The notes under the pieces: generated by a model
What the model was told of the DNA's origin: nothing
What the model saw: only the letters and a program-made list of their open reading frames with translations
Databases searched by the model: none
Assembly: GCA_964397195.1 (NCBI GenBank)
Contig: CAYNGY010000002.1
Coordinates: forward strand, 37,239 to 101,238
DNA length: 64,000 nt
Direction: 5' to 3'
DNA from: an uncultured Gammaproteobacteria bacterium
Lineage (GTDB): Bacteria; Patescibacteriota; Patescibacteriia; SBBC01; CAIJZX01
Position numbers and translations under genes: made by a program
In this document: positions 1,929-61,793 of the stretch, in pieces
Position numbering within the stretch: position 1 is the first letter of the stretch
Layout: each line of letters begins with the position of its first letter

Positions 1929-4900
1929 ATGCCGACTACCGCCTTGCGGACGCAGACGCGTCGCTACTTCACGGATATCGTCGACGCTGCGCCACTCCCG
2001 GATCTCATTGAGATTCAGAAGCGCAGTTACGACTGGTTTTTCCGGGAAGGTCTAAAAGAACTGTTCGAGGAGATCTCTCCGGTCAAGGACTTCATCGGTC
2101 GGGACCTGGAACTCTCATTTCTCGACTATTACCTGGACGAACCGAAGTTCGATGAGGTGACAGCCAAGAATAAGAACGTGACCTACGAAGCGGCATTACG
2201 GGTTCAAGTCCGCTTGGTCAACAAGAAAACTGGCGAAATTAAGGAACAAGAAATTTATCTTGGCGATTTTCCGTTGATGACCGATCGCGGAACGTTCATC
2301 ATTAACGGGATTGAACGCGTCGTCGTTAGCCAGTTGATTCGCTCAGCTGGTGTTTTTTTCACGGTCGAGAATATTCGGGGCCGCCGCTACTACGGGGCGA
2401 AGATTATTCCGAACCGTGGCGCCTGGCTTGAAATTGAAACCGATCCAAACGGTGTTCTGACCGTTAAAATTGATCGCAAACGGAAAGTGCCGATCTCGTC
2501 ATTCCTCCGCGCTTTCGGCTACGGTAGCGACCAGGAAATTTTCGATCTCTTTAAAGACAGCGATACCGGCCCGATTAAATATATCGAAGCGACGGTGGCG
2601 AAAGATGCGGCTAAGGACGAGGCCGAAGGGTTAAAAGAAGTCTACAAGCGTATCCGCCCGGGCGACCTGGCCACGATTGATAACGCTCGTGACTTGATCC
2701 ATAAAATGTTTTTCTCGTTTGATCGCTACGACTTCGGTCGCGTCGGTCGATACAAACTGAATATTCGGTTCGGTTTCGATCAGCCGAATACGAAAGAAAC
2801 CCGCGTCCTCCAGCGAGCGGACGTTGTTTCCATTGTCAAAGAAGTCATCCGGCTCAACAACACTCAGTCGCCGGAAGATGATATCGATCACCTCGGGAAC
2901 CGTCGCGTCCGGGCAATCGGCGAACTCGTCCAGAATAAGTTCCGTGTCGGTCTGGCCCGAATGGAGCGCATCATCAAGGATCGCATGTCGACCCTCGATA
3001 TTAATACCCTGACCCCGAACCAGCTGATTAACGCGCGGCCGGTCATTGGCGCCATCAAGGAGTTCTTTATGAGCTCCCAGTTGTCGCAATTCATGGACCA
3101 GAACAATCCGTTGGCGGAGCTTGAGCACAAACGCCGACTATCAGCGATGGGCCCGGGCGGCTTGTCACGTGAGCGCGCCGGATTTGAAGTTCGTGACGTG
3201 CACCGCACGCACTACGGCCGCATCTGTCCGATTGCGACCCCAGAAGGACCGAACATCGGTCTGGTCGGTCACTTAGCCTCGTATGCTCGGGTCAATGATT
3301 ACGGATTTATTGAAACGCCGTTCCGCAAGGTCGTTCATGATGTTCCGAATGATGGCCAGTCCGCCATTGGCGAAATTGCGCGTGAAGATCTCGGCGGTGT
3401 CGTCAAAGAAGGCGAGACCATCTCAGCCGCCCACGCCAAGCAGTTAAAGACCCTCGAACTCAAAACTATTGCGGTCAAACCGCGAGCGACGAAAGAAGTC
3501 GTCTACCTCGATGCCTTCACCGAAGAGCGTCACTGTACGTCGGCGGCGACGGTGCCAGTTGATGAAAAAGGATACTTCCTCGTCGAAACCGTTGAAGGTC
3601 GGCGTCATGGTGAGCCGACTATCTTCCCGGTCGTAGAAATTGATTTCCTCGATGTATCCGCGAAACAGATTGTTTCGATCGCGACGGCGCTCATTCCGTT
3701 CCTCGAACATGACGACGCGGTTCGCGCGTTGATGGGCACAAACATGCAACGCCAAGCGGTCTGCTGCATTAAGCCACAAGCGCCGATTGTCGGGACGGGT
3801 GTTGAAGAGCGCGCAGCGAAAGACTCCGGACAGGTCGTCCTCGCCCAGAAGGCGGGAACGGTCATGCGGTCGCAAGCAAGCGAAATTCAGATTCAGGAAG
3901 AGGACGGTAACATTCGTATCTACCCGTTGCGAAACTTCTTCCGTTCAAACGCCTCAACCTCGATTAACCAAAAAGCCGCGGTGGTGCCGGGACAGAAAGT
4001 CGCGCAAGGCGACCTCTTGGCCGACGGTGCAGCTACGGAAAACGGCGAACTCGCCCTTGGTCAGAACTTGGTGGTGGCCTTCATTGCTTGGGAGGGCGGT
4101 AACTACGAAGACGCCATCCTGATTTCGGAGCGCGTCGTCCAAGACGATCGTTACACCTCCATCCACATTGAAGATTACGTCATCGATGTCCGCGATACGA
4201 AGCTTGGTGCGGAAGTCGTGACCCGTGACATCCCGAATATTTCCGAGGACAAACTGAAAGACCTTGATGAAGAGGGCGTCGTCCGAATCGGTGCCGAAGT
4301 TTCTTCCGGTGATATCCTCGTCGGGAAAATCACCCCGAAAGGTGAAACAGAGTTGTCGGCGGAAGAAAAGTTACTCCGCGCGATCTTCGGTGAAAAAGCC
4401 AAGGACGTGAAAGACTCGTCGCTGTACCTCGAGCACGGTGAGCACGGCAAGGTTGTTGATATTAAAGTCTTCTCCCGCGAGAAGGGCGATAAATTGCCGG
4501 CCGGCGTGATTAAGCAGATTCAGGTCTCGGTTGCCCAGCTCCGCAAAATCCAAGTTGGTGACAAGATGGCCGGACGTCACGGGAACAAAGGCGTGATCTC
4601 GCGAATCGTGGCGGTTGAAGATATGCCGTATCTCGAAGATGGAACACCGGTTGATATTGTCTTGAACCCGCTCGGTATTGCGTCACGTATGAACCTTGGG
4701 CAGGTGCTCGAAGTTCATCTCGGCATTGCCGCCAAGCGCCTTGGGTTCAAAGTCGCAACACCAGTCCTCGACGGGGTGGCGGAAAAGACGATTAAAGAAC
4801 TACTCGTCGAATCCGGCTTACCGGAAACCGGGAAGATGACGGTTATTAATGGCATGAGCGGCAAGCCGTTTGATATGCCTGTGACCGTTGGGGTGATGTA

Positions 4901-11680: not shown

Positions 11681-12348
11681 TGTTCACCAAGCGTCCGCTC
11701 GCGGGCCAGGAAACGCTCGGTGATCGGTTGCGGCAATTGCGTGAAGAGCGACGGGCGACCCTCGAAGAGGCGTCGAAGGCGGTGATTGTGCCGGCCAAAT
11801 ATCTTGATGCGCTTGAACGAAGCGCGTATACCGAACTGCCGGGCCTCGTCTACGCCCGGAACTTTGTGCGGCAATACGCGACGTGGTTGAGCTTGCCGGT
11901 GGAAACGGCGATGGAAAAGTTTGAGCAAGAATTTCAGGTTGTGCACGGTCGGCGTGTCGAATCACCGCGACTTGTGGCGCGAGCTAAAACCGAGTTTCCG
12001 TGGTATCTGCGTCATGGACGCTTCCTGATCGCTTCGGGGATTATCTTGATCGTCCTCACCTATCTTGTGATTCAGGCGGTACGCTTATTGCGTCCGCCGT
12101 TTATGGAGGTACTTCAGCCATCGACCGATATTTCCATTTCGGAAAACTCGATCGTGGTCAGCGGCCGTACTCAGCCCGGCGTTGAGGTCCGGATTAACAA
12201 CCAACAGACGGATGTCGCGGCGGATGGGACGTTCGTCGAAACGGTTGACCTGCAAACCGGGTTGAATACCCTAAAGATAACCGGACAGCGAAAAATTAGT
12301 AAGCCGGCCGTCGTGGAACGACGGGTGTTGGTGGAGGCGAAGGAATAA
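11677..12348 (+). CDS. RodZ-like protein (N-terminal XRE-type HTH, one TM helix, C-terminal beta domain)
   Basis: HTH segment LGDRLRQLREERRATLEEASKAVIVPAKYLDALERSAY resembles the RodZ N-terminus. A single TM helix (FLIASGIILIVLTYLVIQAV) follows. ATGA overlap with the ftsK stop. Confidence 0.5.
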   Translation: MMFTKRPLAGQETLGDRLRQLREERRATLEEASKAVIVPAKYLDALERSAYTELPGLVYARNFVRQYATWLSLPVETAMEKFEQEFQVVHGRRVESPRLVARAKTEFPWYLRHGRFLIASGIILIVLTYLVIQAVRLLRPPFMEVLQPSTDISISENSIVVSGRTQPGVEVRINNQQTDVAADGTFVETVDLQTGLNTLKITGQRKISKPAVVERRVLVEAKE

Positions 12349-12559
12349 CCACGCGGGGGAAGTGGCTGGACAGCCAACCGTTTACTGTATCATGTGAAAC
12401 TGAAAAAACGCTGAAAAATCCCGTTTCTTCGCTACGTTGAGCGGTTTTTTTGTAAAGCAAAAACCCCAGACCAGATGCCACCATCGCTTGCGCGACGATG
12501 GAATTGGTCCAGGGTATTGCCTGTATCTTTTACGATCCCCGGGGGGAGGGACGGTGCGG

Positions 12560-13078
12560 TTACTTGGTTCTGCTCTGGGCGAGGGGCCCAGGAAGGACGA
12601 CGTTCTCGAAGACGATGGATCGGCCGATGACCTTGCCGACAGGGGCACCTGGTCGACGGCAGTAGACGAGATCGTAGGAGTCGTCTGCGTGTCCGTTGAT
12701 GAAGATGCCGAAGCGGTCGCCGGCGTAGTTCATGTACGGCCTGGCCATCGGGTAGAGGACTTCATCGCGAATCGGCGTCTCGTCCATCAGGCGGACGTTC
12801 GGCCAGCGCGCGGCGTACTTCTTCAGGAAGTAGTCGTCGCCCGGCGAGCCGTAGGACGGCACGGTGCCGTCGATGAACGGGGTGATGGTCGCCGGCAGGG
12901 TGCCGTGCTTGAGCTGGTACTCGGTGATCTCCAGTGCGAGCTCGGTGACCGCCAGATTCTGCTGGCTTACCTCGAACTGGTGACGCAGGTTGGCGACCTC
13001 GATGTTCTGACTGCGGAACTGGGTTCCGATCCAGATCAGACCGAGGACCGCGAGAATGTAGAGAGCGACGATCTTCAT
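12560..13078 (-). CDS. hypothetical signal-anchored or secreted protein (172 aa)
   Basis: N-terminal hydrophobic segment MKIVALYILAVLGLIWIG. SD GGAGGA lies 3-4 nt upstream of the ATG. The overlapping plus-strand ORF 12437-13135 is D/E/R/G-rich antisense noise. Confidence 0.6.
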   Translation of the reverse strand: MKIVALYILAVLGLIWIGTQFRSQNIEVANLRHQFEVSQQNLAVTELALEITEYQLKHGTLPATITPFIDGTVPSYGSPGDDYFLKKYAARWPNVRLMDETPIRDEVLYPMARPYMNYAGDRFGIFINGHADDSYDLVYCRRPGAPVGKVIGRSIVFENVVLPGPLAQSRTK

Positions 13079-13179
13079 GATTCCTCCGTACGGGCGGAAG
13101 TGGTCAGGCTTGGTGCGTCTAGCGCGTCGGGGTGACGCGGTAGATCACCGGGGCGATGATGCCGAGGGTGGAGGCGCGC

Positions 13180-13365
13180 CTAGTCCTTCATGAAGTTGTA
13201 CTCCAGGTCGGACGGCGGTTCACCGTACTTCTTCTTCATCGCGGCGATATGCGTTTCACAGGCCATCGCACCGCCAGCGATCCCGACCGCCCGACCTTCG
13301 CCATTCCAGCGCGGGTCGAGCTTGCTGGTGACCCACCAGCTGCCTTCGCGAATTCCGAAGTCCAT
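13180..13365 (-). CDS. hypothetical small protein (61 aa)
   Basis: ORF preceded by SD AGGAGGA 8 nt upstream. High GC3 like its neighbours. Confidence 0.45.
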   Translation of the reverse strand: MDFGIREGSWWVTSKLDPRWNGEGRAVGIAGGAMACETHIAAMKKKYGEPPSDLEYNFMKD

Positions 13366-13393
13366 GTCTGTGTCCTCCTGATGGCGGTCGATT

Positions 13394-14095
13394 CTACTTC
13401 TGGCGGTAGACGAACCAGACCTCGTCCTTCCCGTTGATGGTGAAGACCGCCATCGTGACGTTGTCGATCTGGGTGCCGTGCTCGATGAGCCAGTGGTCCA
13501 GGTCGCCGGCGTTCTGGAAGACCTTCGCTCTGTAGCCTGGCTCCTCGCCCGGCTTGGGTGGAGGCTGGTAGCCCTGTTCCAGGCAAGGCACGATCACGGT
13601 TCGGGCCAGCGTCGCCGGGTCATCGGACTTGGAATTCGTCCGGATGGTAGCCGGTGGCGCGTAGCGGACGCGGTTCACGGGCACGTCGCCGCCGAACTGG
13701 TACTCCTGCAGGCGCTCCCATGATTCTGCGACCGCGCTCAGGGCCTTCCAGGTCGACGTGTAGCGAGTGCCGATGTTGGAAGACTCCTTGGCGTTCAGAC
13801 CCTTCCAGACGACAGCCAGACACGGGTTGGTGGTGTCACTGCCAGCGGCCGGAAACACGAACAGGTTGTAGCGCAGGTCTCTGGTCCCCAGGGCACCGCG
13901 GTAAGGAGCGGGCTGGAGGGTAGCATACCCGTACAGGCGGAAGGCCCGCCGGTGACCGAGCGCGTTGACGACGGTGACGTTGAAGCCCTCGATTCGGGAC
14001 TTGTAGTACCCGTCGATGGCGCCCTGGCTCGGCGTGGTGATGACACCGAGTGCCATGACCACGATCAGCAGGGTGATGCCGATGCTTGATTTCAT
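13394..14095 (-). CDS. hypothetical secreted protein (233 aa) with N-terminal signal peptide
   Basis: Signal-peptide-like N-terminus MKSSIGITLLIVVMALGVITTPSQGA. SD context GGAGGAATCATGAA is identical to that of the 12560-13078 gene. Its start overlaps the stop of the upstream receiver gene (ATGA). Confidence 0.65.
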   Translation of the reverse strand: MKSSIGITLLIVVMALGVITTPSQGAIDGYYKSRIEGFNVTVVNALGHRRAFRLYGYATLQPAPYRGALGTRDLRYNLFVFPAAGSDTTNPCLAVVWKGLNAKESSNIGTRYTSTWKALSAVAESWERLQEYQFGGDVPVNRVRYAPPATIRTNSKSDDPATLARTVIVPCLEQGYQPPPKPGEEPGYRAKVFQNAGDLDHWLIEHGTQIDNVTMAVFTINGKDEVWFVYRQK

Positions 14096-14481
14096 GATTC
14101 CTCCGGGTTGAGGAGCTCCGTCACCTGCGCGATCAGTTCGCGCGGGCTGAAGGGCTTCGCCATGAAGCGGTGGGCGCCGGCCGCGCAGTACGATCGTCCG
14201 TCAACGTCCGAAGGCTCGGGCGTGGTCAGGACGATAACCTTGATATGCCGGAACGCGGCCCAGGCGACCGTTGCGGTGAGTAGCTCGGGTCCGTTGCCGC
14301 GGTTGAGACGCGGGTCGATGATGATGACGTCGGGCGACGTGCGCTTCAGCTCGATCAGCGGGTTACTTGACCGGCTGATGATGACGACTTCGAAGCCTTG
14401 GTGGCGACTCAGTCGGTAGTCGAGCAGATCCGCATGCTTCGGATCATCGTCGATGACGGTGATACGTCGTTTGTTAGTCAT
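14092..14481 (-). CDS. stand-alone response-regulator receiver (CheY-like REC domain)
   Basis: Starting at MTNKRRITVIDDD (ATG at 14481, SD GGAGGG) it has all REC hallmarks: the DDD acid pocket, phospho-acceptor Asp in VIIIDPRL, Thr in VIVLTT and Lys in AKPF. There is no output domain. The track ORF extends to 14571, but the upstream extension lacks an SD. Confidence 0.75.
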   Translation of the reverse strand: MTNKRRITVIDDDPKHADLLDYRLSRHQGFEVVIISRSSNPLIELKRTSPDVIIIDPRLNRGNGPELLTATVAWAAFRHIKVIVLTTPEPSDVDGRSYCAAGAHRFMAKPFSPRELIAQVTELLNPEES

Positions 14482-14911
14482 GCGCCCTCCGTGGCACGTA
14501 GGTGGTAGGAAAGACGAGGCGGCGTCCGGTGTAGTAGAGCAGTGCGACCATGGCGAGCGCCATGATGACACCGAAGAACTGATCGGGTGCCCAACTGCTT
14601 TGCCACTGGTTCCAGGTGCGGATGTTCACGAGCATGACCATCGCGAACCAGAAACAGCCGGTGTGAATGCCGTAGTCGCGTCGGTACATGATGCGAATCA
14701 TCAGCACCGACGTGAGGACGGCGAGAGTCCACGCGCCGTAGATCATGAAGATGCTCGGCGCGCCTTCCACCAGCTCATTGTAGCCCTCGGCGCCGTCGGG
14801 GAACCATTCCCAGAACTGGTTTTGCCAGTTCCAGAGAGCGGCGCCGATGACGGCGAGAGTGAAGGCGGCGAAAAGACGAGCGATGCCGAACGCATACTGC
14901 TTGAGAGTCAC
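14474..14911 (-). CDS. hypothetical integral membrane protein (about 4 TM, 145 aa), GTG start
   Basis: Four hydrophobic helices, W/F-rich. SD GGAGGAG 4 nt upstream of the GTG start. Its 3' end overlaps the receiver gene start by 8 nt, so they are co-transcribed. Confidence 0.6.
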   Translation of the reverse strand: MTLKQYAFGIARLFAAFTLAVIGAALWNWQNQFWEWFPDGAEGYNELVEGAPSIFMIYGAWTLAVLTSVLMIRIMYRRDYGIHTGCFWFAMVMLVNIRTWNQWQSSWAPDQFFGVIMALAMVALLYYTGRRLVFPTTYVPRRAHD

Positions 14912-15094
14912 GGGACTCCTCCGTTTTTTATGACCGGGCGAGGGAGATCACCGGTCGTTGTCAATGGTCGACGCGACCCTCGCTTGAACTCACCAGTCTA
15001 ATGAGCAGAAAAGACTGATGAGTCCAAGTGAAGATCCGGCGGCGGACTCGCGTGTTACTGCGAGTCCGCCGTCAGAGTGCGGGTTGAATATCTT

Positions 15095-15211
15095 CTACCA
15101 CCGACTAGGGTCTTTGACCTTCGTCCAGTCGATGTTCTTCGGACGCGTTCGCCAGACGCCGATAGCGTAGATGGCGAGCATAGCCACCGCGAGAATGTCC
15201 GACCACTTCAT
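15095..15211 (-). CDS. possible small membrane protein (38 aa: MKWSDILAVAMLAIYAIGVWRTRPKNIDWTKVKDPSRW)
   Basis: Short ORF not in the supplied track. Found by eye, it has one hydrophobic helix and a GGAAAGG SD-like sequence about 9 nt upstream. A strong 11-bp hairpin lies downstream at 15041-15070. Confidence 0.3.
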   Translation of the reverse strand: MKWSDILAVAMLAIYAIGVWRTRPKNIDWTKVKDPSRW

Positions 15212-15245
15212 GGGTTGGCCTTTCCGCGGCAAGGGGGGGGTGGTG

Positions 15246-15401
15246 TTACGCGGCCGCTTGGCCGAGTTCCTTCTCGAGGGTAGCGATCCGATAGCGCAGT
15301 TTCTCGCGCTCCCGTTCGCCGCCTTCGCCTTCCCGATCGTTCTCGTTCAACTCCGCGAGGAGTCGGTCGAGATCGGCCTGGATCTCTGTGCGCGTGCGCA
15401 T
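15246..15401 (-). CDS. hypothetical small charged coiled-coil protein (51 aa)
   Basis: Internal ATG of track ORF 15246-15674 has strong SD GAGGAG 6 nt upstream. The product is MRTRTEIQADLDRLLAELNENDREGEGGEREREKLRYRIATLEKELGQAAA. It starts 12 nt after the stop of the upstream membrane-protein gene. Confidence 0.4.
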   Translation of the reverse strand: MRTRTEIQADLDRLLAELNENDREGEGGEREREKLRYRIATLEKELGQAAA

Positions 15402-15412
15402 GTCGTTCTCCT

Positions 15413-15808
15413 CTAGAGTTGCGGCCAGCGGAAGAAACAGTTCAGGAGCAACAGGATGCCGATGATCTTGCCGATCAGCGTGATGACGTAGCGCGCGATC
15501 TCGGTTTCGTGGCCGAGGTCGTACTCGAACGTCCGATGATCGCCCATTTCCTTGTTCAGGGCGGTCGCGATGCGCTTCAGCGACGAGATGGTGTTGCCGC
15601 AGTGCGTGGCCATACTCAGACCGAGCACTGCCGCCACGACGCCGGCCATCCAGCCGAGCGTGTAGTTGTGCCACACGTGGTTGGTGACCCAGGCGACGGG
15701 AACCATCAGGATCGCGATCATGAAGAAGATCGTGAAGATGATGAGTTCGAGGCGGAAGACTTCGTACTGCTTGAGCAGTGAGCGGATGTAGATCTCATCC
15801 TGATCCAT
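15413..15808 (-). CDS. hypothetical membrane protein (about 131 aa from MDQDEIYIRSLL...)
   Basis: Start chosen at the ATG with SD GGAG 6 nt upstream. Two to three TM helices (LELIIFTIFFMIAILMVPVAWV; GWMAGVVAAVLGLSMA; ITLIGKIIGILLLL). Confidence 0.55.
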   Translation of the reverse strand: MDQDEIYIRSLLKQYEVFRLELIIFTIFFMIAILMVPVAWVTNHVWHNYTLGWMAGVVAAVLGLSMATHCGNTISSLKRIATALNKEMGDHRTFEYDLGHETEIARYVITLIGKIIGILLLLNCFFRWPQL

Positions 15809-15893
15809 TTGCACTCCTCGGCGGCTTGAGCCGCGAATGGGTAGTGGCGTGGACAGCGAGTCCGTTTCGAAGATATTCGTGAGAGTTAAGGTG

Positions 15894-15979
15894 CGACTCT
15901 CGTTTGAAGGTTTCAATGGTTGAAACTCTCAAACGAGAGTCCCAGTACCGGCTGTCCTTGTCGGACTTCCGGTACTGGG
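15894..15979 (-). repeat. tandem perfect inverted repeats (nested 13-bp + 7-bp hairpin, then an 11-bp hairpin) between two co-oriented island genes
   Basis: First hairpin: GACTCTCGTTTGA (15894-15906) pairs with TCAAACGAGAGTC (15929-15941), enclosing the inner stem GTTTCAA/TTGAAAC. Second hairpin: CCCAGTACCGG (15941-15951) pairs with CCGGTACTGGG (15969-15979). Neither is followed by a U-tract. Confidence 0.7.
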
Positions 15980-15995
15980 ATGATCTCATCTACAT

Positions 15996-16451
15996 CTAGA
16001 TGAACTCGTACTTCGGGCCGTTGGCGAAGATGGCGCGCGTGTACCAGCGACGACCCTGTTGGTCGAAGTACTGCAGGTCGACACGCTCGACGCCCTCGGA
16101 ACGGTCCGGCAGGTAGCTGAAGTTCAGCTTACCTCGGCAGGCCTTGCCGCCGGTGTCCTGGTGGCACTCGATACGCTGGCCGCTGTCGGGATCGTTGAAC
16201 TCGAGGTAGTCCTTCGAGAACATGCTCATGACCTCGAAGATGCTCCGCGGGAGCTGACCGTTGTTGTTGACTCGGAAGTTCTCGACCTTGTCAGCCATCC
16301 GGTTCATGGTGTTGACCAGGGACTCGTGCCGATGCCCGGCCTGGCTCCGTACGAGCTGCGTCTGAGTCTCCTTGAGCCGACGCAGAAGGTACGTGCTGTA
16401 CATGGCGGCGGCAACACCGAAGATAGCGAGGATGAACACGGAAATGCTCAT
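15996..16451 (-). CDS. hypothetical N-terminally anchored protein (about 151 aa)
   Basis: Start at the second ATG (MSISVFILAIFGVAAAMYSTYLL) with SD GGGAGA. One TM helix followed by a hydrophilic domain. Confidence 0.55.
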   Translation of the reverse strand: MSISVFILAIFGVAAAMYSTYLLRRLKETQTQLVRSQAGHRHESLVNTMNRMADKVENFRVNNNGQLPRSIFEVMSMFSKDYLEFNDPDSGQRIECHQDTGGKACRGKLNFSYLPDRSEGVERVDLQYFDQQGRRWYTRAIFANGPKYEFI

Positions 16452-16662
16452 GAAGTCTCCCATGCTTGACCGGATCTATCCGGGGCGGGTTGGAGTGGCG
16501 AAGACGACGAGTTTATTGTAGATGAGAGTAGAAAGAACAAACTCTATCTCTCGCATAACGTGACCACGTGGTGATCAGGTTGTGCGAGAGGCCCGGAACC
16601 ACTCCTTCCGATCTTGTCGGGAGTTTGGTTCTGGGCCGAACGAAGGTGCTCTCGCGGAATGC

Positions 16663-16911
16663 CTAGTAGGTGCGCGTCTCGGCGCGATTGGTCTCGCGGT
16701 GGAGCGAGACGGCCAGCCAGAGTACGCCGGTTCCGATCACGGTGACGAACAGCGCGGCCGGGAAGAGGCGGGGGTCGGCACTGTAGTCCTTGATGGCCGA
16801 GTAGACGCCGTAGAGGCCGAGCGCCGCGATCGCCGTCCCGAAAACGGACAGGACCGCGGACAGCATGTGACGACCGAACTTCTGGTCAGGCGTGAGGCGG
16901 AGCGTCGACAT
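16663..16911 (-). CDS. hypothetical small membrane protein (82 aa, 2 TM)
   Basis: Two hydrophobic helices. SD AGGTAGGA upstream. The overlapping plus-strand ORF 16582-17064 is D/E/R/G-rich antisense noise. Confidence 0.5.
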   Translation of the reverse strand: MSTLRLTPDQKFGRHMLSAVLSVFGTAIAALGLYGVYSAIKDYSADPRLFPAALFVTVIGTGVLWLAVSLHRETNRAETRTY

Positions 16912-17136
16912 GGATTCCTACCTTTCGGTGAGGGGCGGGTGATACGAAAAAACGCGTTGCGGCGACAAATCCCGGAGCAGGTTTATCACAACAACGCGTT
17001 TTTCACATATCGTGTCCGACGTCTGCTCACGTGGCACGAAGCGGGTATATTTAAAGAACAGTAGATTATACGCTTGGCGGCGAAAAATGTCAAGAGTAAG
17101 GGCGTGGCGACGGATCGTATTTGGCTAATTATAGCC

Positions 17137-17159
17137 AAAAAAACCCAGCCGAAGCTGGG
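17137..17159 (-). terminator. rho-independent terminator for the RNase III-like gene (minus strand)
   Basis: On the minus strand: CCCAGC-ttcg-GCTGGG followed by TTTTTTT (plus-strand 17137-17159 reads AAAAAAACCCAGCcgaaGCTGGG). Confidence 0.7.
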
Positions 17160-17184
17160 GGTAGGGTGGGGTTCTTGGGCCCTG

Positions 17185-17982
17185 CTACTTCCGAATTTCG
17201 GCGAGCAGGCGCGTCAGCGCGAATTCTCGAGCGCGAGACGGATTGGGGGACTTGCCGCGAGTGAGGCATCCGTTCAGCTTGGCCGTGCAGTGGTAGACGG
17301 CGTTCCTCGGACCACCGCGTCGACGATTCTGGATCCGTGGTACCGGGTAGCCGTGTTGACGGGCGTAGATGACGAGTGCGGCCCACGGATTGAGGCGGCG
17401 GCCGTTGACGGTCGTAGGTGTGACCTCCAGCAGATCCTCCGGTCGGTGGTCGTTCCCTTGGTCAGTTGTGACCTCATGGCCGTTCGTGACCGGGATGGTC
17501 GTTGGCAGGGGATGTCTCAGCACGTACGGCAGGTACCGTTCGATGACGTAGGCCTCAGCCGCAGCGACTCCTTGGTGGCGGTCGATGATGGCGAGGACGC
17601 ACTCGAAGGTTGTGCCGAGAGTGTGGTCAGCTTTCCGTGCGTTGCGGCGCGATCCCGTCAGTTGGCGAGCGAGATTCGCGACGCCGATGTGGCCGAGATA
17701 GGTCGCCATGCACCCGTTCGTCGTGACATGGTCAACCCACGTCGGGTCGAGACCATGCGCCGATCCGTTCTTATTGAACCAACGTCGAAGCGCGAGCTCA
17801 ACGATCGAATCGCCGATGAACGAGAGCGCTTTCCGAGTGTCTTCGTAGGGCAGTGGGTGACGTTCGCCCGACTGGCCGGTGATGATGATCCGGATCCAGT
17901 CAGTCGACAGGTCGGGTAGCCCAAGCTGCGTCCTGATGACGCCGAAGAGCGCATTTCGCGTCGATCCATTTGCGGTTCCCAA
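17185..17982 (-). CDS. RNase III-like protein (catalytic-domain-like region, about 60-aa insert, C-terminal dsRBD), TTG start
   Basis: KALSFIGDSIVELALRRWF matches the RNase III signature ERLEFLGDAxLEL. HTLGTTFECVLAIIDRHQG matches ADxFEAxxGAIYLD. The C-terminal segment NPWAALVIYARQHGYPVPRIQNRRRGGPRNAVYHCTAKLNGCLTRGKSPNPSRAREFALTRLLAEI is dsRBD-like. SD AAGGAG lies 7 nt upstream of the TTG start. Confidence 0.6.
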   Translation of the reverse strand: MGTANGSTRNALFGVIRTQLGLPDLSTDWIRIIITGQSGERHPLPYEDTRKALSFIGDSIVELALRRWFNKNGSAHGLDPTWVDHVTTNGCMATYLGHIGVANLARQLTGSRRNARKADHTLGTTFECVLAIIDRHQGVAAAEAYVIERYLPYVLRHPLPTTIPVTNGHEVTTDQGNDHRPEDLLEVTPTTVNGRRLNPWAALVIYARQHGYPVPRIQNRRRGGPRNAVYHCTAKLNGCLTRGKSPNPSRAREFALTRLLAEIRK

Positions 17983-18164
17983 GGTGCACTCCTTGTGTGT
18001 CGGTCCGTGCTACGGGAGTAGAACGGTGCTCCTGCCTCAAGCCTAGGCTCGTTTCGCGGTATCGTCAAGGATACTTTCGGTATGTGGAAAACTGGTATTT
18101 ACGGTTCGGTTATTATTCCCCGGCTCGCGGGCCGGGGCAGGCTAAACCTTAGAAAATCAGGGTC

Positions 18165-18194
18165 TTGACGCTTCGGTTATTATTCGGGTATCAT
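18165..18194 (+). promoter_or_regulatory. putative recA promoter (TTGACG-N18-TATCAT), overlapped by the second copy of a 15-nt direct repeat
   Basis: -35 TTGACG at 18165-18170 and -10 TATCAT at 18189-18194. The repeat TTCGGTTATTATTCS occurs at 18105-18119 and 18172-18186. Confidence 0.45.
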
Positions 18195-18260
18195 ATATAT
18201 ATTAGTCCCGACTGAGCCCGATAGTGGCTAGACGGAGACACTAACCGAAAGGAAAAACAT

Positions 18261-19364
18261 ATGGCCAAAGGCCACAAGGCGTCCGCTTCTTCACCGGCGG
18301 GCAAGGAAAAAAATGATGCCGCGTTAGCCGCGATCGAGCGGATTCGCGAGCGCTTTGGTGAGGGATCGATCATGAAGTTCAGTGAAGCCCGGGCGACTGA
18401 TGTCGATGTCGTCAGTACGGGTTGCTTGTCGTTAGATCTGGCGTTGGGTGTTGGTGGTGTGCCACGCGGACGGATTATTGAAATCTTTGGACCGGAAGCG
18501 TCGGGAAAAACAACACTCGCACAGCATATCGTAGCCGAGGTACAGAAGGCGGGTGGGACGGCGGCCTTCGTTGACGCCGAACATGCGCTTGATCCAAGCT
18601 ATGCCAAGAAAATTGGGGTGAATGTCGATGATCTTTTGATCTCACAGCCAGATTCCGGCGAGCAGGCTCTGGAGATTGTCGAAACCTTGGTGCGATCGAA
18701 CGCCGTGGACGTGGTGGTTGTTGACTCGGTGGCGGCGTTAACGCCAAAAGCGGAAATTGAAGGTGAGATGGGCGACTCACACATGGGTCTGCAAGCGCGG
18801 CTGATGTCGCAGGCGTTACGGAAGCTGACGGCCATTGTGTCCAAAACACGAACGATCATTATCTTCATCAACCAGACGCGCATGAAGATCGGTGTCTTCT
18901 TCGGAAATCCGGAAACCACGACCGGTGGGACGGCCTTGAAGTTCTACTGTTCGGTCCGAATTGAAGTTCGCCGCATTGGTCAGCTGAAACAGGGTGACAA
19001 GATTGTCGGGAACCGGACGAAAGCAAAAGTGGTGAAGAATAAAGTCGCCGCGCCGTTCCGCCAAGCCGAATTCGATATCATGTACAATCAAGGGATCTCG
19101 CTGGTCGGTGACGTGCTTGATACGGGATTGCTCTACGGTGTTTTGCAGAAGTCCGGAAACACCGTCAGCTTTGGAGAAACGAAGTTTGGTGTTGGCCGTG
19201 AGGCGTGCAAGCAGTATTTGCAAGACAACGCCAAGGTGATTAACGAGATTCGAGAGGCGGTCTTGAGGGTAGCTAAGGAGCGCCAGGCCGAAGACGACCT
19301 GTCCGGCCGTGCGCCGAGCGTGCCCGAACCGGAGGCGGCGGCTGAGGCACCGGTGACGGAATAG
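18261..19364 (+). CDS. recA: recombinase RecA
   Basis: Walker [10 protein letters not shown] and a classic RecA core ([23 protein letters not shown]). Confidence 0.96.
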
Positions 19365-33633: not shown

Positions 33634-33659
33634 CCCGTCGGGCATGGTATACTTTTGGC

Positions 33660-36929: not shown

Positions 36930-37131
36930 AATGGGCCTAGTGTAGCAGATTCTCAGGTTTTGGCGAGGGGCGTGTCCTTGACGGTGTTGGAGTGGCAGGA
37001 TAGAACTTGCTTCGTCTCTTCCTATATCTGTCTCGGACTTTGGGAGGGCATCATCGACTCGGTGTTTTCTATATGAAAACGCGCCCCGGGATATCCAGTC
37101 CCAGAGCGCGGGGTTGTCGGTGCGATGCGTA

Positions 37132-38073
37132 CTAGGCGCCGAGGCCGCGATCACCGATGATCGACTTCAGGTGCTCAATCATGGCGACGCCGCGACGTTC
37201 CTGCGCCGGGTTCGAGACGCGAACTTTCGTCCGCGGCGGACCGAGCAGGGCGCGGGTGATCTCGGCGAGCTTCCGGCCGTGGATCGGCTGGGGCTCGGCG
37301 TGCTTGACCTCTTGCTCGAGCAGTTGCAGACCGGCCTCCAGCTCGATGGCCCGACCGCGCGGCGCGTCGATGGTCTCGTCGACGGAGACGAAGGTCACAT
37401 AGTCGGCGGTCGATTCCCAGGTGGCTACGAACTCGATCAGGCGGGTGAGTGGCCAGGGCGAGCCCGGTGTCCAGACGATCGTCTCATGCTCGTTCGCGAA
37501 CTCGATCTGATGGACACTGATCACGTTGACGTGCCAGGGATAGTGTCCGTCCTTGTTGAGGATCGCCTCCCAGTTCTGGTACTCGGGATCGTATCGATAG
37601 AGGATTCCCGGCTGGCCGTCGCCGAAGCGCGGCATGCGGATTGCGAAGGGGATCGCCGCGCTGAAGTACTGCGGGTGTGGCTTGAACCCAAGCTGACCCG
37701 AGTTCAGTATCGGCGGATCTTGGTGTGCGTGAAGCTCGCCGTCGGGCGTGATGGCGAGCCAACCCTGACCGAACTGGTAGCGGGTCTGCCAGGTCAGGAA
37801 GGACCAGAGCGTGTACAAAACTGCCGCGGACAGCACGGCGATAACCGTCCAGCCTTCGCGGGTGTACGCCTGCCAGTCGCGCTGTGTGTCCGAGAGCGCG
37901 AGGGACATGAAGACGAACAGGGCGATGCCGAAGAGCAGGCAGATAACCCCGTACATCTCCTTCTTCCAGCGCCGGGTGTTCTGCTCAGCTGCGGTCACAT
38001 ACTTCCGATCGAAGTGGTGATCTTGAAGCTGACGTGCCGCCTGGCGACAGGCCCGACAGTTTTCTTGTGACAT
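37132..38073 (-). CDS. hypothetical membrane protein (about 313 aa) with very high GC3, probably horizontally acquired
   Basis: Start at MSQENCRACRQAARQ with SD GGAGGA 5 nt upstream. Two TM helices (VICLLFGIALFVFMSLAL; WTVIAVLSAAVLYTLWSFL) and a W/Y-rich C-terminal domain. The overlapping plus-strand ORF 37114-38070 is D/R/G-rich antisense noise. Confidence 0.55.
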   Translation of the reverse strand: MSQENCRACRQAARQLQDHHFDRKYVTAAEQNTRRWKKEMYGVICLLFGIALFVFMSLALSDTQRDWQAYTREGWTVIAVLSAAVLYTLWSFLTWQTRYQFGQGWLAITPDGELHAHQDPPILNSGQLGFKPHPQYFSAAIPFAIRMPRFGDGQPGILYRYDPEYQNWEAILNKDGHYPWHVNVISVHQIEFANEHETIVWTPGSPWPLTRLIEFVATWESTADYVTFVSVDETIDAPRGRAIELEAGLQLLEQEVKHAEPQPIHGRKLAEITRALLGPPRTKVRVSNPAQERRGVAMIEHLKSIIGDRGLGA

Positions 38074-38571
38074 GGCATCCTCCAGAACCGAATCAGCCTC
38101 GATCCCGCTCCGCTCCAAATCGTCGGAGTCGCGGATACTGATCCGGCGGATGTGGGTCGATCGACCCAATGTGAAGCTACGACCGTCGGACAACGACGGG
38201 ATGGACTTGCTTTATCAGAAAAGAGGGGATTTGTCAATCCCCGATAGCGCAATTTGGGCTAAGATGCGGCCAAAGGAAAAGTACACATTGGCCCATTCAA
38301 TACTGTAACGTTCGGGAGCGAGAAGTGTAACGTTGGGTGTGGGTGATGTGGGGCCGATGTCCTGCCGGACGGGCATTCCTTTTCTCCTTGATGAGAAAAG
38401 GAACCGAAAAGAATCAAGCGGCCGATAAACTCGGGCCGCAAATTGGCGGCCCTCAAACAGTATCGGCCGCGCAACGGTTTCATCGCTTGGAAGACGGACG
38501 GCCAAAACCAACCACCCCTCCCGTGTCATCCCCGCGTAGTCGGGGAAAGGAGGGGCTGGTGGGAAAACGCG
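38074..38571. other. roughly 500-nt non-coding region dense in nested inverted repeats (possible structured RNA, or regulatory/terminator region)
   Basis: Examples: GGCCGATA-aactc-GGGCCGC-aaattg-GCGGCCC-tcaaacag-TATCGGCC (about 38432-38485). CCCCTCC...CCCCG-cgtagt-CGGGG...GGAGGGG (about 38515-38560) directly downstream of the rnj stop. TTTTCTC-cttgat-GAGAAAA. GGGGATT-tgtca-AATCCCC. Confidence 0.4.
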
Positions 38572-51431: not shown

Positions 51432-54400
51432 ATGTCTGAGAAATTTCCACCTGAAGAAGCTGCTGGTCATCGGCCAGTAGAGACGGATGAAGTAAAAAGT
51501 ATTCTTGATGATTTGGCGCGACGTATCGCCCAAAATGAAGATGTGACGGATGCAGAGTTGCGACAGACGCAGAACGTGGTTAATGGACTTACCGGTCGTA
51601 CGGACGAGGATTTTGAGTCTTTTTATACGCAGATTACCGATCGAGCGACGCGTGTTGAACAAGAAGATCGGGCCCGTGAGGCTCGTGATCAGGAAGTCAT
51701 CGAGAAAACTGAGGCGCTGAAGAAAATTATCGCCGAGCACCCGGATGATGTGACGGCAATTCGAGCGTTGGCCGAAGAAATCCGAACGCAGGATGTGATT
51801 GATCATCGTGGTCAGACCGTTCGCGAATTTTTCCGAGACCTGCTGGTTGACCCAGCGCCGTACTATACCGTCGAGGAATTGGGTCCCGATGATGTCACCC
51901 CTCCGACGACGGAAGGAGAACCATCGCCATCCGTTTCGCCAGCCACGACGACTGAACCAGAACTCGAGCCAATCAATGTCGTCCCACCAGTGGAAACCAC
52001 TCTCCCAGAATCAGAGACGCCGGCTGTTGACGCCCCAGCCGCTTGGTCGTTGCCACAGCCGGGCCGACGAGTCGGGAAGGATGGAAAGCCGCTCCGCCGT
52101 TTGACGACCGACCAGCGTGAGAAAGCGGAAGCGGAGTATTCGCGACTACGGACTGAAATTGAACAGAAATGGCCGGATGTTGAATGGAAATATCAGCAGT
52201 TAGACAAGAAACAACGAGAAGACTCAGTCCGATCCGATCCAGAAATGCAGCCGCTTCTGAAGGAATACGTTCGGGCGAAGGAATTGTTAGCTCACCCGGT
52301 CCGTCGCGATCGCCGTGCGCCACAAACGACCGAACCAAAATCGACTGTCCCGTCGGGCGCATCCTCGGCGCCGAGCGAAGCAGAGCCGGTTATTCCGGTG
52401 GTGAGCGAACCAACGGTGGGACCGGTACCCGAAGCACCGGCCTCGGATATTCAGCCGCGAGGCACGATTGCTCCAGAGACAACGGACCATCTTTCGCCGG
52501 CGGATAAAGAAAAAGTAGCGGCGACCACGGCGGCGATGGCGGTCAATACACCGATGGGGCCGTTGCGGACCGAGCTCTCTGGTGTCGCGAAAGCCCTTGG
52601 TGCTGAAGTGCCGGTTGAACCGGAACCGATCGTGCCACCGGTGCAGCCAGCGCCATCAGCGCGGCCCGTGACACCATCACGAACGGTGCGCGACTTTAAT
52701 CCGGAAGCGCCGATGCAGGATGAGCAACCGCTCTATCCGGCGGGGTATACGGGCGAAACGATTCGTCCGACAGAACCGGTAGTGATTGAAGACGCGGCGA
52801 CGCGAGTGAGCGGCACGCCCGAAACGGTGGGTACGCCGGAAGCGCGTGAAGTCGCCGCCATGGAGTTTAATGAAAAATTGATTCAGGCCGAAGAGACCTA
52901 CGCGAAGGCGCTCCGACGCGAGGGACACTGGTGGAATTTTGGGAATAAATCAAAACTCGAGAAAGCAAAGAACGAGTATGATATTCTCGTCGGTGAAGCG
53001 CGGCAAAAAGGCGCTCTAGCGATCGTCGAAAAGTTTAAACAATCGGGTCGTCTCGATAACCCGGTCGTCCAAGATACATGCATCGCTGAGGCGCTGGCAT
53101 TTGAAAAGCAATTTGTGAGCCAAGCCCAAGCGCATTTTCGCGAAGCGATGCGTGGTGATAAGGAACAGAGCGGATTCGAGCAAAAAGTTGAACATTTCCG
53201 GACGTGGTGGCGAGTAAATAGTAAGGCCCGGGCTGTGGTTTCAGCTGGGTTGTTTGGGATCGGTATGGCCGGCGCCCTGACGGGTAACTTCTTTGTGACG
53301 GGTGCTGCGTCCGCATTACGTGGCGCTATTGCGGCGGTTGGTAGTGAAGGGGCGATGCGTGCCGGTGGAAAAGCCATTGGTCGGAAGTGGGGTGCGAGTA
53401 AGGAAATGACCGCTGAGCACATCGGGAAAATTACAGACCTCGGTGAGCTGCGGACGCGTATTTCCGCCCATACCTTTGACACTCTTGAATTTGGTGAAGA
53501 AAAGTTTGGTGTTCGGAAGGTAGGGAAACGTGAAGACCGTACGGGGGCGATGCTCCAAGAGCGATATGGCGAGCTCTTGCGGGCGGAGATGGAGAAAGGG
53601 GTACTGGCCCAAAAAGAAGCCGGGAAAACACCGGATCAGATTATTGACTGGTTCTTATCGTCTACCGTGTCTGACCGTCACGAATTGCATAATGCCTACG
53701 TTCAGCGACTGCATAAGAACAAGTTGTCGTCGCAGATTCGGGTGACCGCTTCGGCTGGGATCGGTTTGCTGGCGGGGATGGCTTCTCATACCGGGGCGGA
53801 GCATCTGTCGAAAACGAAAGCGGCGGATTGGGTCAAGAATTTGTTTCACTTCGGCCATGATGACACACACCGTCAGGTGGTGGCTGGGGCCGGACGGGCA
53901 GGACGATCATTTGTGATGGCGGCGCCGGATACGAGTCATACTGTTAGTGCCGCGGTTGAAGCGCCGGCCCATACGGCGGCGCAAGAGGCGGCCGCACAAA
54001 ACATCGCTAGCATGCTTGAGAAGGCCCAAAAAGGTGACAATGTTTGGGCATTGTCGGAGCGTTTCTTCGGCACGCATGCGCCAGGGCTTACTCCTGAACA
54101 TGCCTCACGTTTTGCGGCATATGCGCAAGAGGCCATTCGCCAACAAGCAAGTGAGCTGGGCATCACTGATCTATCTAAAATCAACATTGATCAAACCATC
54201 GATTATTCCAAAATAGATTGGGGTAAGGTAGATTTTTCCAAGATTGGTGACGCTCATCATTTCCGTTCTCTCCAAGAAGTCTTAGATTCCGTGAAAGGGA
54301 CTTCTGCGCAGACATTGAGGAGCATTGCAGAGAACAATCAAACGATCCAGGAATGGTCGGTAGCACATCCGGGGGAAGCTGTGACCGGCGATCTACTACG

Positions 54401-54893
54401 AACGGTGGCGAAGGGCACAAAAAAGGCGATTGTTGCTGTTGCGTCCGAACCCAGTACGCCGTCGATTGCCGTTGAAGCTACGGGGAGCGTGCCGGGCGAG
54501 GCGATAGATTCGGCGATTGCGCAGAGTGTCGAACGGAGCGTTCAAGCGGCGGAGGTAGCTGCACCGGTAACTCAGGAAGTGGCAAAAACACTGCTGATGC
54601 GGCCAGAGATTTCCTCGGCCTTTGATACCCTTCGAATTCAAATTCTCCCGATTGCGAGCGAGGCTCGATCGACGTTGACGGCTGAGTTATCCAAGATGAG
54701 CCTACAGCAAGCCGAGACGCCGGGCCTGCTTGAAGGCGTGGTGTCGAAAGCCGTGACCGGGGCGCCGGAAAAAACGGCGGCGGTGGTTGAATCTGTTCGG
54801 ACCTTCGCAAAAGCACTTCGAGCCGGTGGCCATCTCGCGAATGAGTCGGTAGCTGCGGGCATAGAATGGACACGCAGTTTTCAGGGTCGGTAG
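51432..54893 (+). CDS. hypothetical large protein (1153 aa): acidic coiled-coil N-terminus, Pro/Thr/Glu-rich low-complexity linker, central Gly/Ala-rich hydrophobic segments, helical C-terminal region
   Basis: Composition seen directly. Long PxxP-rich acidic stretches (about 51.9-52.7 kb). Putative TM segments AVVSAGLFGIGMAGALTGNFFVTGAASALRGAIAAVG and VTASAGIGLLAGMASHTGAE. No recognisable catalytic motif. Confidence 0.6.
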   Translation: MSEKFPPEEAAGHRPVETDEVKSILDDLARRIAQNEDVTDAELRQTQNVVNGLTGRTDEDFESFYTQITDRATRVEQEDRAREARDQEVIEKTEALKKIIAEHPDDVTAIRALAEEIRTQDVIDHRGQTVREFFRDLLVDPAPYYTVEELGPDDVTPPTTEGEPSPSVSPATTTEPELEPINVVPPVETTLPESETPAVDAPAAWSLPQPGRRVGKDGKPLRRLTTDQREKAEAEYSRLRTEIEQKWPDVEWKYQQLDKKQREDSVRSDPEMQPLLKEYVRAKELLAHPVRRDRRAPQTTEPKSTVPSGASSAPSEAEPVIPVVSEPTVGPVPEAPASDIQPRGTIAPETTDHLSPADKEKVAATTAAMAVNTPMGPLRTELSGVAKALGAEVPVEPEPIVPPVQPAPSARPVTPSRTVRDFNPEAPMQDEQPLYPAGYTGETIRPTEPVVIEDAATRVSGTPETVGTPEAREVAAMEFNEKLIQAEETYAKALRREGHWWNFGNKSKLEKAKNEYDILVGEARQKGALAIVEKFKQSGRLDNPVVQDTCIAEALAFEKQFVSQAQAHFREAMRGDKEQSGFEQKVEHFRTWWRVNSKARAVVSAGLFGIGMAGALTGNFFVTGAASALRGAIAAVGSEGAMRAGGKAIGRKWGASKEMTAEHIGKITDLGELRTRISAHTFDTLEFGEEKFGVRKVGKREDRTGAMLQERYGELLRAEMEKGVLAQKEAGKTPDQIIDWFLSSTVSDRHELHNAYVQRLHKNKLSSQIRVTASAGIGLLAGMASHTGAEHLSKTKAADWVKNLFHFGHDDTHRQVVAGAGRAGRSFVMAAPDTSHTVSAAVEAPAHTAAQEAAAQNIASMLEKAQKGDNVWALSERFFGTHAPGLTPEHASRFAAYAQEAIRQQASELGITDLSKINIDQTIDYSKIDWGKVDFSKIGDAHHFRSLQEVLDSVKGTSAQTLRSIAENNQTIQEWSVAHPGEAVTGDLLRTVAKGTKKAIVAVASEPSTPSIAVEATGSVPGEAIDSAIAQSVERSVQAAEVAAPVTQEVAKTLLMRPEISSAFDTLRIQILPIASEARSTLTAELSKMSLQQAETPGLLEGVVSKAVTGAPEKTAAVVESVRTFAKALRAGGHLANESVAAGIEWTRSFQGR

Positions 54894-54899
54894 AGACTT

Positions 54900-54931
54900 G
54901 ATTTTCTTCGGTGGTCGTGGCGTGGTATACT
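54900..54931 (+). promoter_or_regulatory. putative leaderless promoter (cgTGgTATACT) 7 nt upstream of the 54939 ATG
   Basis: TATACT at 54926-54931 preceded by TGg. ATG at 54939. No SD. Confidence 0.4.
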
Positions 54932-54938
54932 GAGGGTC

Positions 54939-60958: not shown

Positions 60959-61225
60959 CCTGCGCCCCCCAAATTAGTCTCTAGAACAATCGTCAGAAAA
61001 GCCTCATACCACTTAGGTAGATAGGGCACCTACCTCATGTAGGTGTGGGATAAAGCAACCTACTATCATAAACAACGAAACTGAATTTTTGCTGAACCCC
61101 GCACCGTACGGTGCGGGGTGAACTAAAACTTCAGCTACCCTTGTGCAAAAAAAGACACCCGGGGCCAATGGCTCCCGGGCGTGGTACGTGGCGAGTGACG
61201 TTTCCGTGGGCGTCACGTGACGGTG

Positions 61226-61618: not shown

Positions 61619-61793
61619 TGATCCTACCCTCATCCGATGAGGGGGTAAGGTGTCCCGGGGGCGAATCCCGGGCGAGGACATGGCCATCGGCAGCACGGAC
61701 TGGCGATGGAATTGCTAGGGTACGCCTCTCTTGCGGTGGGTGTCAAGGCGGACAGAGTGGCGGTTTTTCCCATTTCTGGTAGGGTATAGACGC

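Follow-up and report, generated by a model that had tools for sequence, protein, structure and literature searches.

The DNA examined here is a 64-kb stretch of a bacterial chromosome (hereafter the window; GC content 55%) that carries rpoB, rpoC, ftsK, a rodZ-like gene, recA, efp, ssb, rpsF, groEL, uvrA, uvrC, dnaG and other core genes. The best matches of its recA, at 68-75% identity, are metagenome-assembled genomes (MAGs) of unclassified Patescibacteria, Falkowbacteria, Paceibacter and Uhrbacteria, and identities of only this order indicate a bacterium of the Candidate Phyla Radiation (CPR) without a close sequenced relative. Between the rodZ-like gene and recA lie eleven minus-strand genes, o1 to o11, together with a consensus promoter and several long hairpins. 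An earlier note, made from the sequence alone, had listed these eleven open reading frames (ORFs; 12560-17982), all of which are present as described, and had suggested that they were acquired horizontally. Our analysis supports this suggestion: since deviant codon usage, deviant use of Shine-Dalgarno (SD) sequences and an interruption of the conserved ftsK-rodZ-recA gene order agree, the block is best read as a horizontally acquired islet between two normally adjacent housekeeping genes.

Codon usage and translation initiation

The GC content at third codon positions (GC3), computed gene by gene, is 0.821 ± 0.052 in the eleven islet genes (range 0.73-0.90) and 0.592 ± 0.056 in 28 core genes (0.37-0.68). 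The two ranges do not overlap (Mann-Whitney p = 8e-7), which bears out the claim that islet codons end in G or C more consistently than those of rpoB, rpoC, ftsK and recA (GC3 0.62, 0.64, 0.61 and 0.64). The islet codons are preferentially C-ending. In a phase-specific sliding scan, GC3 of at least 0.76 is confined to 12450-16500 and 37050-38100, and the relative synonymous codon usage of the islet correlates with that of the host core at r = 0.61, as against r = 0.87 both with the high-GC3 ORF in the second of these regions (37132-38073) and with a GC-rich metagenome contig, L082, that encodes a relative of o11.

The islet genes also differ in how their translation appears to begin. A five-nucleotide SD core (GGAGG or AGGAG) lies upstream of eight of the eleven, compared with one of 22 core genes, and the mean energy of the duplex with the anti-SD sequence is -8.1 kcal/mol in the islet versus -2.1 kcal/mol in the core. 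Window-wide, GGAGG is depleted on the two strands together (80 copies, 130 ± 10.5 expected). Two core genes have an extended -10 element (TGGTATACT) only 7-8 nt upstream of their ATG (33640-33659 and 54919-54938), an arrangement consistent with a leaderless-mRNA style in this CPR genome, and thus the contrast drawn earlier between canonical SDs in the islet and leaderless-looking core genes holds. The shared initiation context that had been noticed at 13078 and 14095 is likewise real: the window contains the 14-mer GGAGGAATCATGAA at two places only, once at the start of o1 and once at that of o3, with no occurrence expected by chance.

Other compositional features of the window may be mentioned here. 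The ORF at 37132-38073 (minus strand, GC3 0.81) forms a second high-GC3 islet, which consists of one gene and is flanked by trpS and the gene for RNase J; its product of about 313 residues has two transmembrane (TM) segments, a GGAGG-N5-ATG start and no Pfam family. A 156-residue ORF at 61226-61696 (minus strand), also without a Pfam family, has a raised GC3 of 0.75 and is adjoined by long inverted repeats at 60934-60987 (20-pair stem) and 61081-61134 (27-nt arms). The 1,153-residue ORF downstream of groEL (51432-54893, plus strand) has no Pfam family at E <= 0.001. An extended -10 element close to a start codon is also seen on contig L082.

Interruption of a conserved gene order

We compared the proteins of the window by tblastn with 80 recA loci of GTDB species representatives. 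The order rpoC-ftsK-rodZ-recA-efp is kept in many CPR lineages, and of 14 related Patescibacteria loci, 12 have a gap of 33-600 bp between rodZ and recA, as opposed to 5,916 bp here, so that the block is not part of the synteny conserved among these distant relatives. The inserted segment has a GC content of 0.58-0.63, compared with about 0.54 in its surroundings.

A sharp change of composition at both edges, in a sequence of MAG origin, is also what an assembly chimera or contaminating DNA would produce. However, a separately built 39-kb Logan contig (SRR12487045) has the identical arrangement and reproduces both junctions, which are likewise found, with the islet proteins, on the 246.5-kb NCBI contig (the two assemblies possibly share reads); to arise as a chimera, moreover, the sequence would have to leave one genome and re-enter it at two joins, each placed precisely between genes. 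We regard this explanation as scarcely credible.

It is also conceivable that the genes are native, fast-evolving and lineage-specific, with a codon bias due to their level of expression or to mutation in this region. Sampling of the organism is very sparse: each of the seven islet products that were looked up is a singleton at 90% identity, and scans of metagenome contigs with o11 and with rodZ, including metagenomes of the Joint Genome Institute (JGI), revealed no relatives, so that absence of the block from relatives cannot be dated. Highly expressed core genes (rpoB, rpoC, groEL, efp and ribosomal protein genes), however, have a GC3 of about 0.6 rather than 0.8, the style of translation initiation differs, and the junction is uninterrupted across many CPR lineages; native origin therefore appears very improbable.

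As had been stated before, no integrase or transposase domain is present in any islet product (Pfam, NCBIfam and PHROGs), and the ends of the islet carry no terminal direct or inverted repeats, only chance matches of 7-8 nt. In a related Patescibacteria MAG (locus L006) the rodZ-recA junction is interrupted as well, by a different insert of about 1.8 kb (2656-4511), which holds a 207-residue ORF with an HExxH motif (DUF45/WLM-like; 3101-3724). Because of this different insertion the junction seems permissive, perhaps a site of recurrent insertion. The intergenic region between o11 and recA contains two copies, 88% identical, of a 25-nt direct repeat (GGTnTTnACGnTTCGGTTATTATTC; 18094-18118 and 18161-18185); the second copy overlaps the -35 element of a recA promoter-like site (18165-18194), and the repeat could be an operator.

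Gene products of the islet

The features of the islet are collected in Table 1. The products were searched against four profile libraries (Pfam, NCBIfam, PHROGs and PADLOC), which assign only o4, as a receiver (REC) domain, and o11, as RNase III-like; the remaining products have no assignable function, in agreement with the earlier note. Its description of the block as predominantly small membrane or secreted proteins also stands, with hydrophobic N-termini or TM segments in six or seven of the eleven products (six by a Kyte-Doolittle scan).

Table 1. Genes, RNA structures and signals of the islet (window coordinates)
Feature	Start	End	Strand	Description
Inserted segment	12349	18260		rodZ-like stop codon to recA start codon, 5,912 bp
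o1	12560	13078	-	172 aa; N-terminal hydrophobic anchor or signal; GC3 0.86; start context CGGAGGAATC-ATG
o2	13180	13365	-	61 aa; soluble; GC3 0.79; start context AGGAGG-N8-ATG
o3	13394	14095	-	233 aa; Sec-type signal peptide; GC3 0.85; initiation context as o1
o4	14092	14481	-	129 aa; stand-alone receiver (REC), OmpR/PhoB-type lineage, no output domain
o5	14474	14911	-	145 aa; polytopic membrane protein (3-4 TM); GC3 0.81; start context GGAGGAG-N5-GTG
Double stem-loop module 3	14973	15080	-	about 17 nt after o6 stop; -66.3 kcal/mol, z -8.9; 75 bits against model R1
o6	15095	15211	-	38-aa hydrophobic mini-ORF; least certain gene call
o7	15246	15401	-	51 aa; acidic, coiled-coil-like; GC3 0.76; start context GAGGAG-N6-ATG
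o8	15413	15808	-	131 aa; membrane protein, 3 TM; start context GAGGAG-N6-ATG
Double stem-loop module 2	15890	15982	-	16 nt after o9 stop; -59.3 kcal/mol, z -10.9; 93 bits against R1
o9	15996	16463	-	151-155 aa; N-terminal TM anchor; GC3 0.86
Double stem-loop module 1	16546	16639	-	about 23 nt after o10 stop; z -5.2; 84 bits against R1
o10	16663	16911	-	82 aa; membrane protein, 2 TM; GC3 0.90
Leader hairpin	16947	17004	-	about 24 pairs, then U6; between promoter and o10
Sigma-70 consensus promoter	17065	17093	-	TTGACA-17-TATAAT; sole 12/12 match in the 64-kb window
Intrinsic-terminator-like hairpin	17144	17159	-	U7 tail; 3' of o11
o11	17185	17982	-	265 aa; divergent RNase III homologue, nuclease domain and C-terminal double-stranded RNA-binding domain; GC3 0.73 (islet minimum)

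The stand-alone REC domain recognised earlier in o4 is confirmed by Pfam PF00072 (57 bits, cutoff 30.2). Its best PDB matches are the receiver domains of MtrA, YycF and PhoP (E 1e-11), and alignment with MtrA and YycF shows that D12, D13, D56, T86 and K109 are kept; with this phospho-acceptor set intact, o4 looks phosphorylatable. No histidine kinase (HisKA or HATPase_c) was found among the islet products or in ten further ORFs of the window that were scanned. The end of o5 overlaps the start of o4 by 8 nt, and the ATGA at the start of o3 overlaps the o4 stop codon by 4 nt; these overlaps suggest that o5, o4 and o3 are translationally coupled.

A TM-like segment occupies residues 3-21 of o1 and residues 4-22 of o9. 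For o1 there is no match in Pfam, NCBIfam, PHROG, PADLOC, PDB, phage or viral-contig collections, for o2 none in Pfam or NCBIfam, and for o9 there are no phage, viral or PDB relatives; PDB sequence searches with o1, o3 and o9 gave noise only, and o3 retrieved nothing except itself from among 5.8 billion proteins. The Pfam matches of o8, to holin- or bestrophin-like families, and of o10, to a holin family, are all below threshold. Longer frames exist for o8 (167 residues, 15413-15916, GC3 0.82) and for o6 (45 residues, 15095-15232, GC3 0.78), the latter with no SD and an uncertain start. The possibility that o1 and o9 are paralogues or pilin-like was rejected (BLASTP E 0.42, no prepilin motif). 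Over o10 and o11, the Logan gene calls place plus-strand ORFs at 16582-17064 (160 residues) and 17074-17919 (271 residues), which their high first-position GC content and ordinary GC3 mark as shadow frames; because of these calls, protein databases have no entry for the RNase III-like protein.

A divergent RNase III homologue

o11 falls just short of the Pfam cutoff for Ribonuclease_3 (23.7 bits, cutoff 27) and has a sub-threshold match to Mycovirus_RNAse (E 4.6e-4). Searched exhaustively with phmmer, 1.84 billion representative proteins yielded two relatives (E 7e-7 and 7e-6), both singletons from Logan metagenome assemblies, and word-indexed homology searches with o11 and with its A1 profile added no others. 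One relative (P0002) is encoded at 10001-10705 of contig L082 (GC 0.61) between flavodoxin and purH genes, with a composition that matches its neighbours; this contig encodes purH and a split transketolase, and has starts of both leaderless and SD style. The other is encoded at 261-1007 of contig L083 (1.8 kb, GC 0.53). Both are stand-alone genes.

The relationship to RNase III is visible only by family profile and hhalign, as phmmer with o11 alone found no RNase III match in the PDB. A profile of the three sequences matches Thermotoga maritima RNase III (1o0w) best among PDB entries, as well as Dicer RNase III domains and double-stranded RNA (dsRNA)-binding proteins. By hhalign, the family aligns with canonical RNase III over 216 columns that span the nuclease domain and the dsRNA-binding domain (dsRBD), with a probability of 96.7% and E 3.5e-10, the canonical alignment comprising two sequences from fetched loci and E. 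coli Rnc. The dsRBD is further supported by matches of the profile to the dsRBDs of XlrbpA, TRBP and Staufen (E 0.03-0.5) and by a Pfam dsrm match of P0002 (E 0.013). Judged by these alignments, o11 is a true full-length RNase III homologue.

The catalytic signature, in contrast, is degenerate, so that the RNase III-like label of the earlier note is upheld for the fold family and not for the active site. The signature motif reads KALSFIGD in o11 as against the canonical ERLEFLGD. At the E. coli positions, D45 and E117 are invariant in the three proteins, E38 is replaced by K, D or Q, E41 by S, A and A, and D114 reads T, D and T; the D114 position is N in a canonical Falkowbacteria RNase III (locus L002). 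Deep mutational scanning of rnc in E. coli found E41, D45 and E117 intolerant of any substitution and D114 tolerant (PMC10037077). Because E41 is replaced, o11 should be catalytically impaired by E. coli rules, and it may act as a dsRNA-binding protein or through an altered site. Whether o11 could be the native rnc was also considered, as a Falkowbacteria rnc (L002) lies 4.4 kb upstream of recA; this was rejected, as the two loci are neither arranged nor oriented alike and have unrelated genes in between.

Promoter, terminators and hairpins

Apart from the consensus promoter upstream of o10, no other minus-strand promoter-like site was found in 12000-18500. Between this promoter and o10, the leader hairpin folds more stably as minus-strand RNA (-48.8 kcal/mol, z -5.4) than as plus-strand RNA (-34.5 kcal/mol, z -1.9) and looks like a terminator or attenuator. 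A 39-residue, GTG-initiated ORF (16918-17037, minus strand) spans this hairpin upstream of o10.

The long hairpins that had been reported as perfect are real and concentrated in the islet; compared with dinucleotide shuffles, their folds have z-scores between -5.2 and -10.9. They are not perfect, however: their arms are 82-89% complementary by Watson-Crick pairing, with one or two mismatches left when G-U pairs are allowed. Six stems of at least 18 pairs fall within 14975-17004 (a count that includes 15940-15980, with 18-nt arms, masked by overlap in the main stem scan), versus three in the other 58 kb.

Three intergenic regions, downstream of o10, o9 and o6, are tandem double stem-loops, each of which starts 16-23 nt past the stop codon. 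Modules 1 and 2 have the sequence CCCAGnACC...GGTnCyGGGmCTCTCG...CGAGAG in common, and all three can be aligned along CCCAGnACC...GGTnCyGGG followed by CTCTCG...CGAGAG and a 3' end TTCAArCGAGrGTCGC. In their common structure 87% of cells pair, compared with 27-45% when the 3' partners are slid by one to three columns; 17 of 37 pairs are changed on both sides, and the observed values were reached in none of 500 shuffles. A covariance model of the element (R1) finds three copies in the window, all in the islet, and no copy in 1.27 Mb of other loci; a search for the DNA pattern of the modules in viral contigs gave no match. Rfam, at the gathering threshold and at E <= 1, finds nothing in the islet, leader hairpin included. 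Downstream of module 1 there is a partial U-rich run; modules 2 and 3 have no U-tract.

An alternative account of these structures is that they are plain terminators, 3'-end stabilisers or repeats similar to repetitive extragenic palindromic (REP) sequences and bacterial interspersed mosaic elements (BIMEs), with o11 an unrelated passenger that was acquired separately or is inactive. The position of the modules shortly after stop codons is the usual site of terminators and REP elements, and module 1 has its U-rich run; o11, for its part, has its own terminator and the lowest GC3 of the islet, relatives without hairpins nearby, and a replacement at the substitution-intolerant E41. On the other hand, modules 2 and 3 are without U-tracts, no internal promoters were detected that could restart transcription after them, and the element is confined to an islet that carries a dsRNA-binding homologue. 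We consider this account a real possibility, at clearly less than an even chance.

Origin of the islet

The codon usage and initiation signals show a donor with a GC3 of about 0.8, C-ending codons and SD-led genes. The earlier note went further and named an actinobacterium, as the host of an epibiotic CPR cell. High GC3, the preference for C-ending codons and the strong SDs fit such a donor; the best PDB match of the receiver is Mycobacterium tuberculosis MtrA, barely above Bacillus YycF and PhoP; and those hairpins that have no U-tract are similar to the I-shaped terminators known from Actinobacteria. The searches, however, do not bear this out. With o3 and o11, billions of proteins, among which all sequenced Actinobacteria should be represented, returned only a self-hit and two metagenome singletons, respectively. 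Contig L082, the one contig that resembles the islet, encodes a PurH whose score against the M. tuberculosis protein is no higher than its scores against PurH from other bacteria. Tblastn with four islet proteins, o1, o3 and o9 among them, against 50,697 phage records, which presumably include many actinophages, and with o5 against 72,556 plasmids found nothing, and neither did blastn of the whole islet against the phage and plasmid collections. In addition, recA places the genome outside Saccharibacteria, the CPR group with known actinobacterial hosts. An actinobacterial donor is thus improbable, and this part of the earlier proposal is not sustained.

The same collections speak to a further explanation, in which a prophage or another mobile element has decayed and left the islet behind, for example as a cassette of small membrane proteins for lysis or superinfection exclusion, or as an operon of phage type that carries RNase III processing sites. 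Many small TM ORFs without relatives and a strong, constitutive-looking promoter would suit such an element, as would the sub-threshold Pfam matches (holin families for o8 and o10, Mycovirus_RNAse for o11), and the intercistronic stem-loops recall the RNase III sites of the T7 early region. Yet the PHROG matches are limited to generic REC, the 50,697 phage genomes gave no hits, scans of viral contigs (IMG/VR) with o11, o3, o9 and o1 found none, and no integrase, terminase, capsid gene, endolysin or att-like repeat is present. We therefore think this origin unlikely. Two other kinds of element were tried and rejected. An integron cassette array, or a cluster of attC sites lacking an integron-integrase (CALIN), would not fit, as there is no RYYYAAC...GTTRRRY core-site pair on either strand, no integrase, and only three structured elements for ten genes; an anti-phage defence system was dismissed because PADLOC yields only a weak REC match and spurious Cas matches.

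Proposed expression of the islet

Taking the islet as a horizontally acquired unit, we propose the following working. o11 would form its own transcription unit, closed by the terminator 3' of it, and the ten downstream genes, o10 to o1, would be transcribed as one long mRNA from the single consensus promoter, with the leader hairpin as a potential attenuator of this transcription. We read the double stem-loops, which have no clear U-tracts and are followed by no internal promoters, as putative RNA processing or stability elements; by cutting or stabilising the mRNA they would divide it into four segments, namely o10, o9, o8-o7-o6 and o5-o4-o3-o2-o1, with o5, o4 and o3 coupled in the last of these through their overlaps. 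The most likely factor to act on helices of 16-24 bp would be o11; since its E41 position is occupied by S, dsRNA binding or weak cleavage is more probable for it than full nuclease activity. The products would most likely modify the cell envelope, and through the receiver they could be linked to acetyl phosphate or to a kinase of the host. As a whole, a horizontally acquired islet in a CPR chromosome, expressed in this way, is in our estimate about 60% probable and the best explanation of the segment.

A number of points weigh against this reading or parts of it. With respect to acquisition, the islet has no tRNA, no integrase and no flanking repeats, and the comparison genomes are distant (recA 65-75% and rodZ 25-36% identity), so that the insertion could be old, or common to unsampled close relatives; the very large protein collections were queried with o3 and o11 only. 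With respect to the RNA, the covariation counts overstate the common descent of the modules, because any three hairpins aligned in register yield apparent compensatory changes, and the modules fold about equally well on both strands, the leader hairpin alone clearly favouring the coding-strand RNA. Both relatives of o11 are lone genes, set in housekeeping or short contexts, and neither has long hairpins in its vicinity, which means that an association of o11 with hairpins is not a conserved trait; together with the restriction of strand asymmetry to the leader hairpin, this makes the link between o11 and the helices weak. AlphaFold prediction of o11 from the single sequence and from the three-sequence alignment gave no usable model (pLDDT 37.7 and 33.2). 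Lastly, that the products act at or modify the cell envelope is probable with hydrophobicity as its whole basis, a qualification that also applies to the envelope or signalling system envisaged in the earlier note.

Relation to known systems

In groundwater Patescibacteria MAGs genomic islands are frequent, and horizontal gene transfer accounts for up to 13% of genome length, mostly between Patescibacteria (PMC12455944). The islet resembles such islands in being a compositionally deviant, mostly hypothetical block among the core genes of a streamlined genome. It differs from them in the absence of integrase, tRNA and repeats, in a content almost entirely without detectable relatives, and in having its own promoter, SD style and private structured repeat. 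As a kind, it is one already known, an orphan envelope-gene islet, islands of hypothetical genes being common in Patescibacteria. Two details, the RNase III family without E41 and the private double stem-loop repeat, are unusual to a modest degree.

Each of the assignable components has familiar counterparts. o11 is collinear end to end with class-1 RNase III (Rnc; PF00636/PF14622 with dsrm PF00035), with the N-terminal helix, the helix of the signature motif, the xxFEAxxGA helix and the C-terminal alpha-beta-beta-beta-alpha dsRBD; unlike Rnc, it has an insertion of about 45 residues between nuclease domain and dsRBD, replacements at the equivalents of E38, E41 and D114, and a family of three known members. 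o4 shares the receiver fold signature and the quintet of acidic pocket, Thr and Lys with CheY-like single-domain regulators and OmpR-PhoB receivers (MtrA, YycF, PhoB), but is without the DNA-binding output domain of OmpR-PhoB regulators and is coupled to polytopic membrane and secreted proteins. The modules, similarly, are imperfect palindromes located within operons just past stop codons, in adjacent pairs, as are the REP/BIME elements of enterobacteria, the Correia elements of Neisseria and the RNase III sites of T7, which can serve as RNA 3'-end, stability or processing elements. In contrast to these elements, the modules number three copies in a single islet, with no REP-associated tyrosine transposase (RAYT) and no similarity to Rfam families.

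Significance

We also considered a bolder form of this proposal, in which the islet is a self-contained foreign expression unit with its own RNA-level controller: a catalytically remodelled RNase III paralogue that recognises the private repeats and the leader hairpin and so sets the relative amounts of the four groups of envelope proteins, all expressed from one strong promoter. This is a long shot. If true, a new family of regulators would emerge, small in size, that derive from RNase III, bind dsRNA and have E41 changed to S or A, together with their cognate RNA element, and such control would operate in a host most of whose genes are leaderless and have no SD.

Irrespective of the controller, the locus represents a well-bounded gene gain in a reduced CPR genome, on which codon usage, initiation style and broken synteny agree, and it has turned up a three-member RNase III family without the E41 carboxylate. 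It indicates that CPR genomes can hold foreign genes that keep donor-type SDs in a mostly SD-less, partly leaderless background, and donor-type SDs in an SD-poor host raise the question of how efficiently the genes of the islet are translated.

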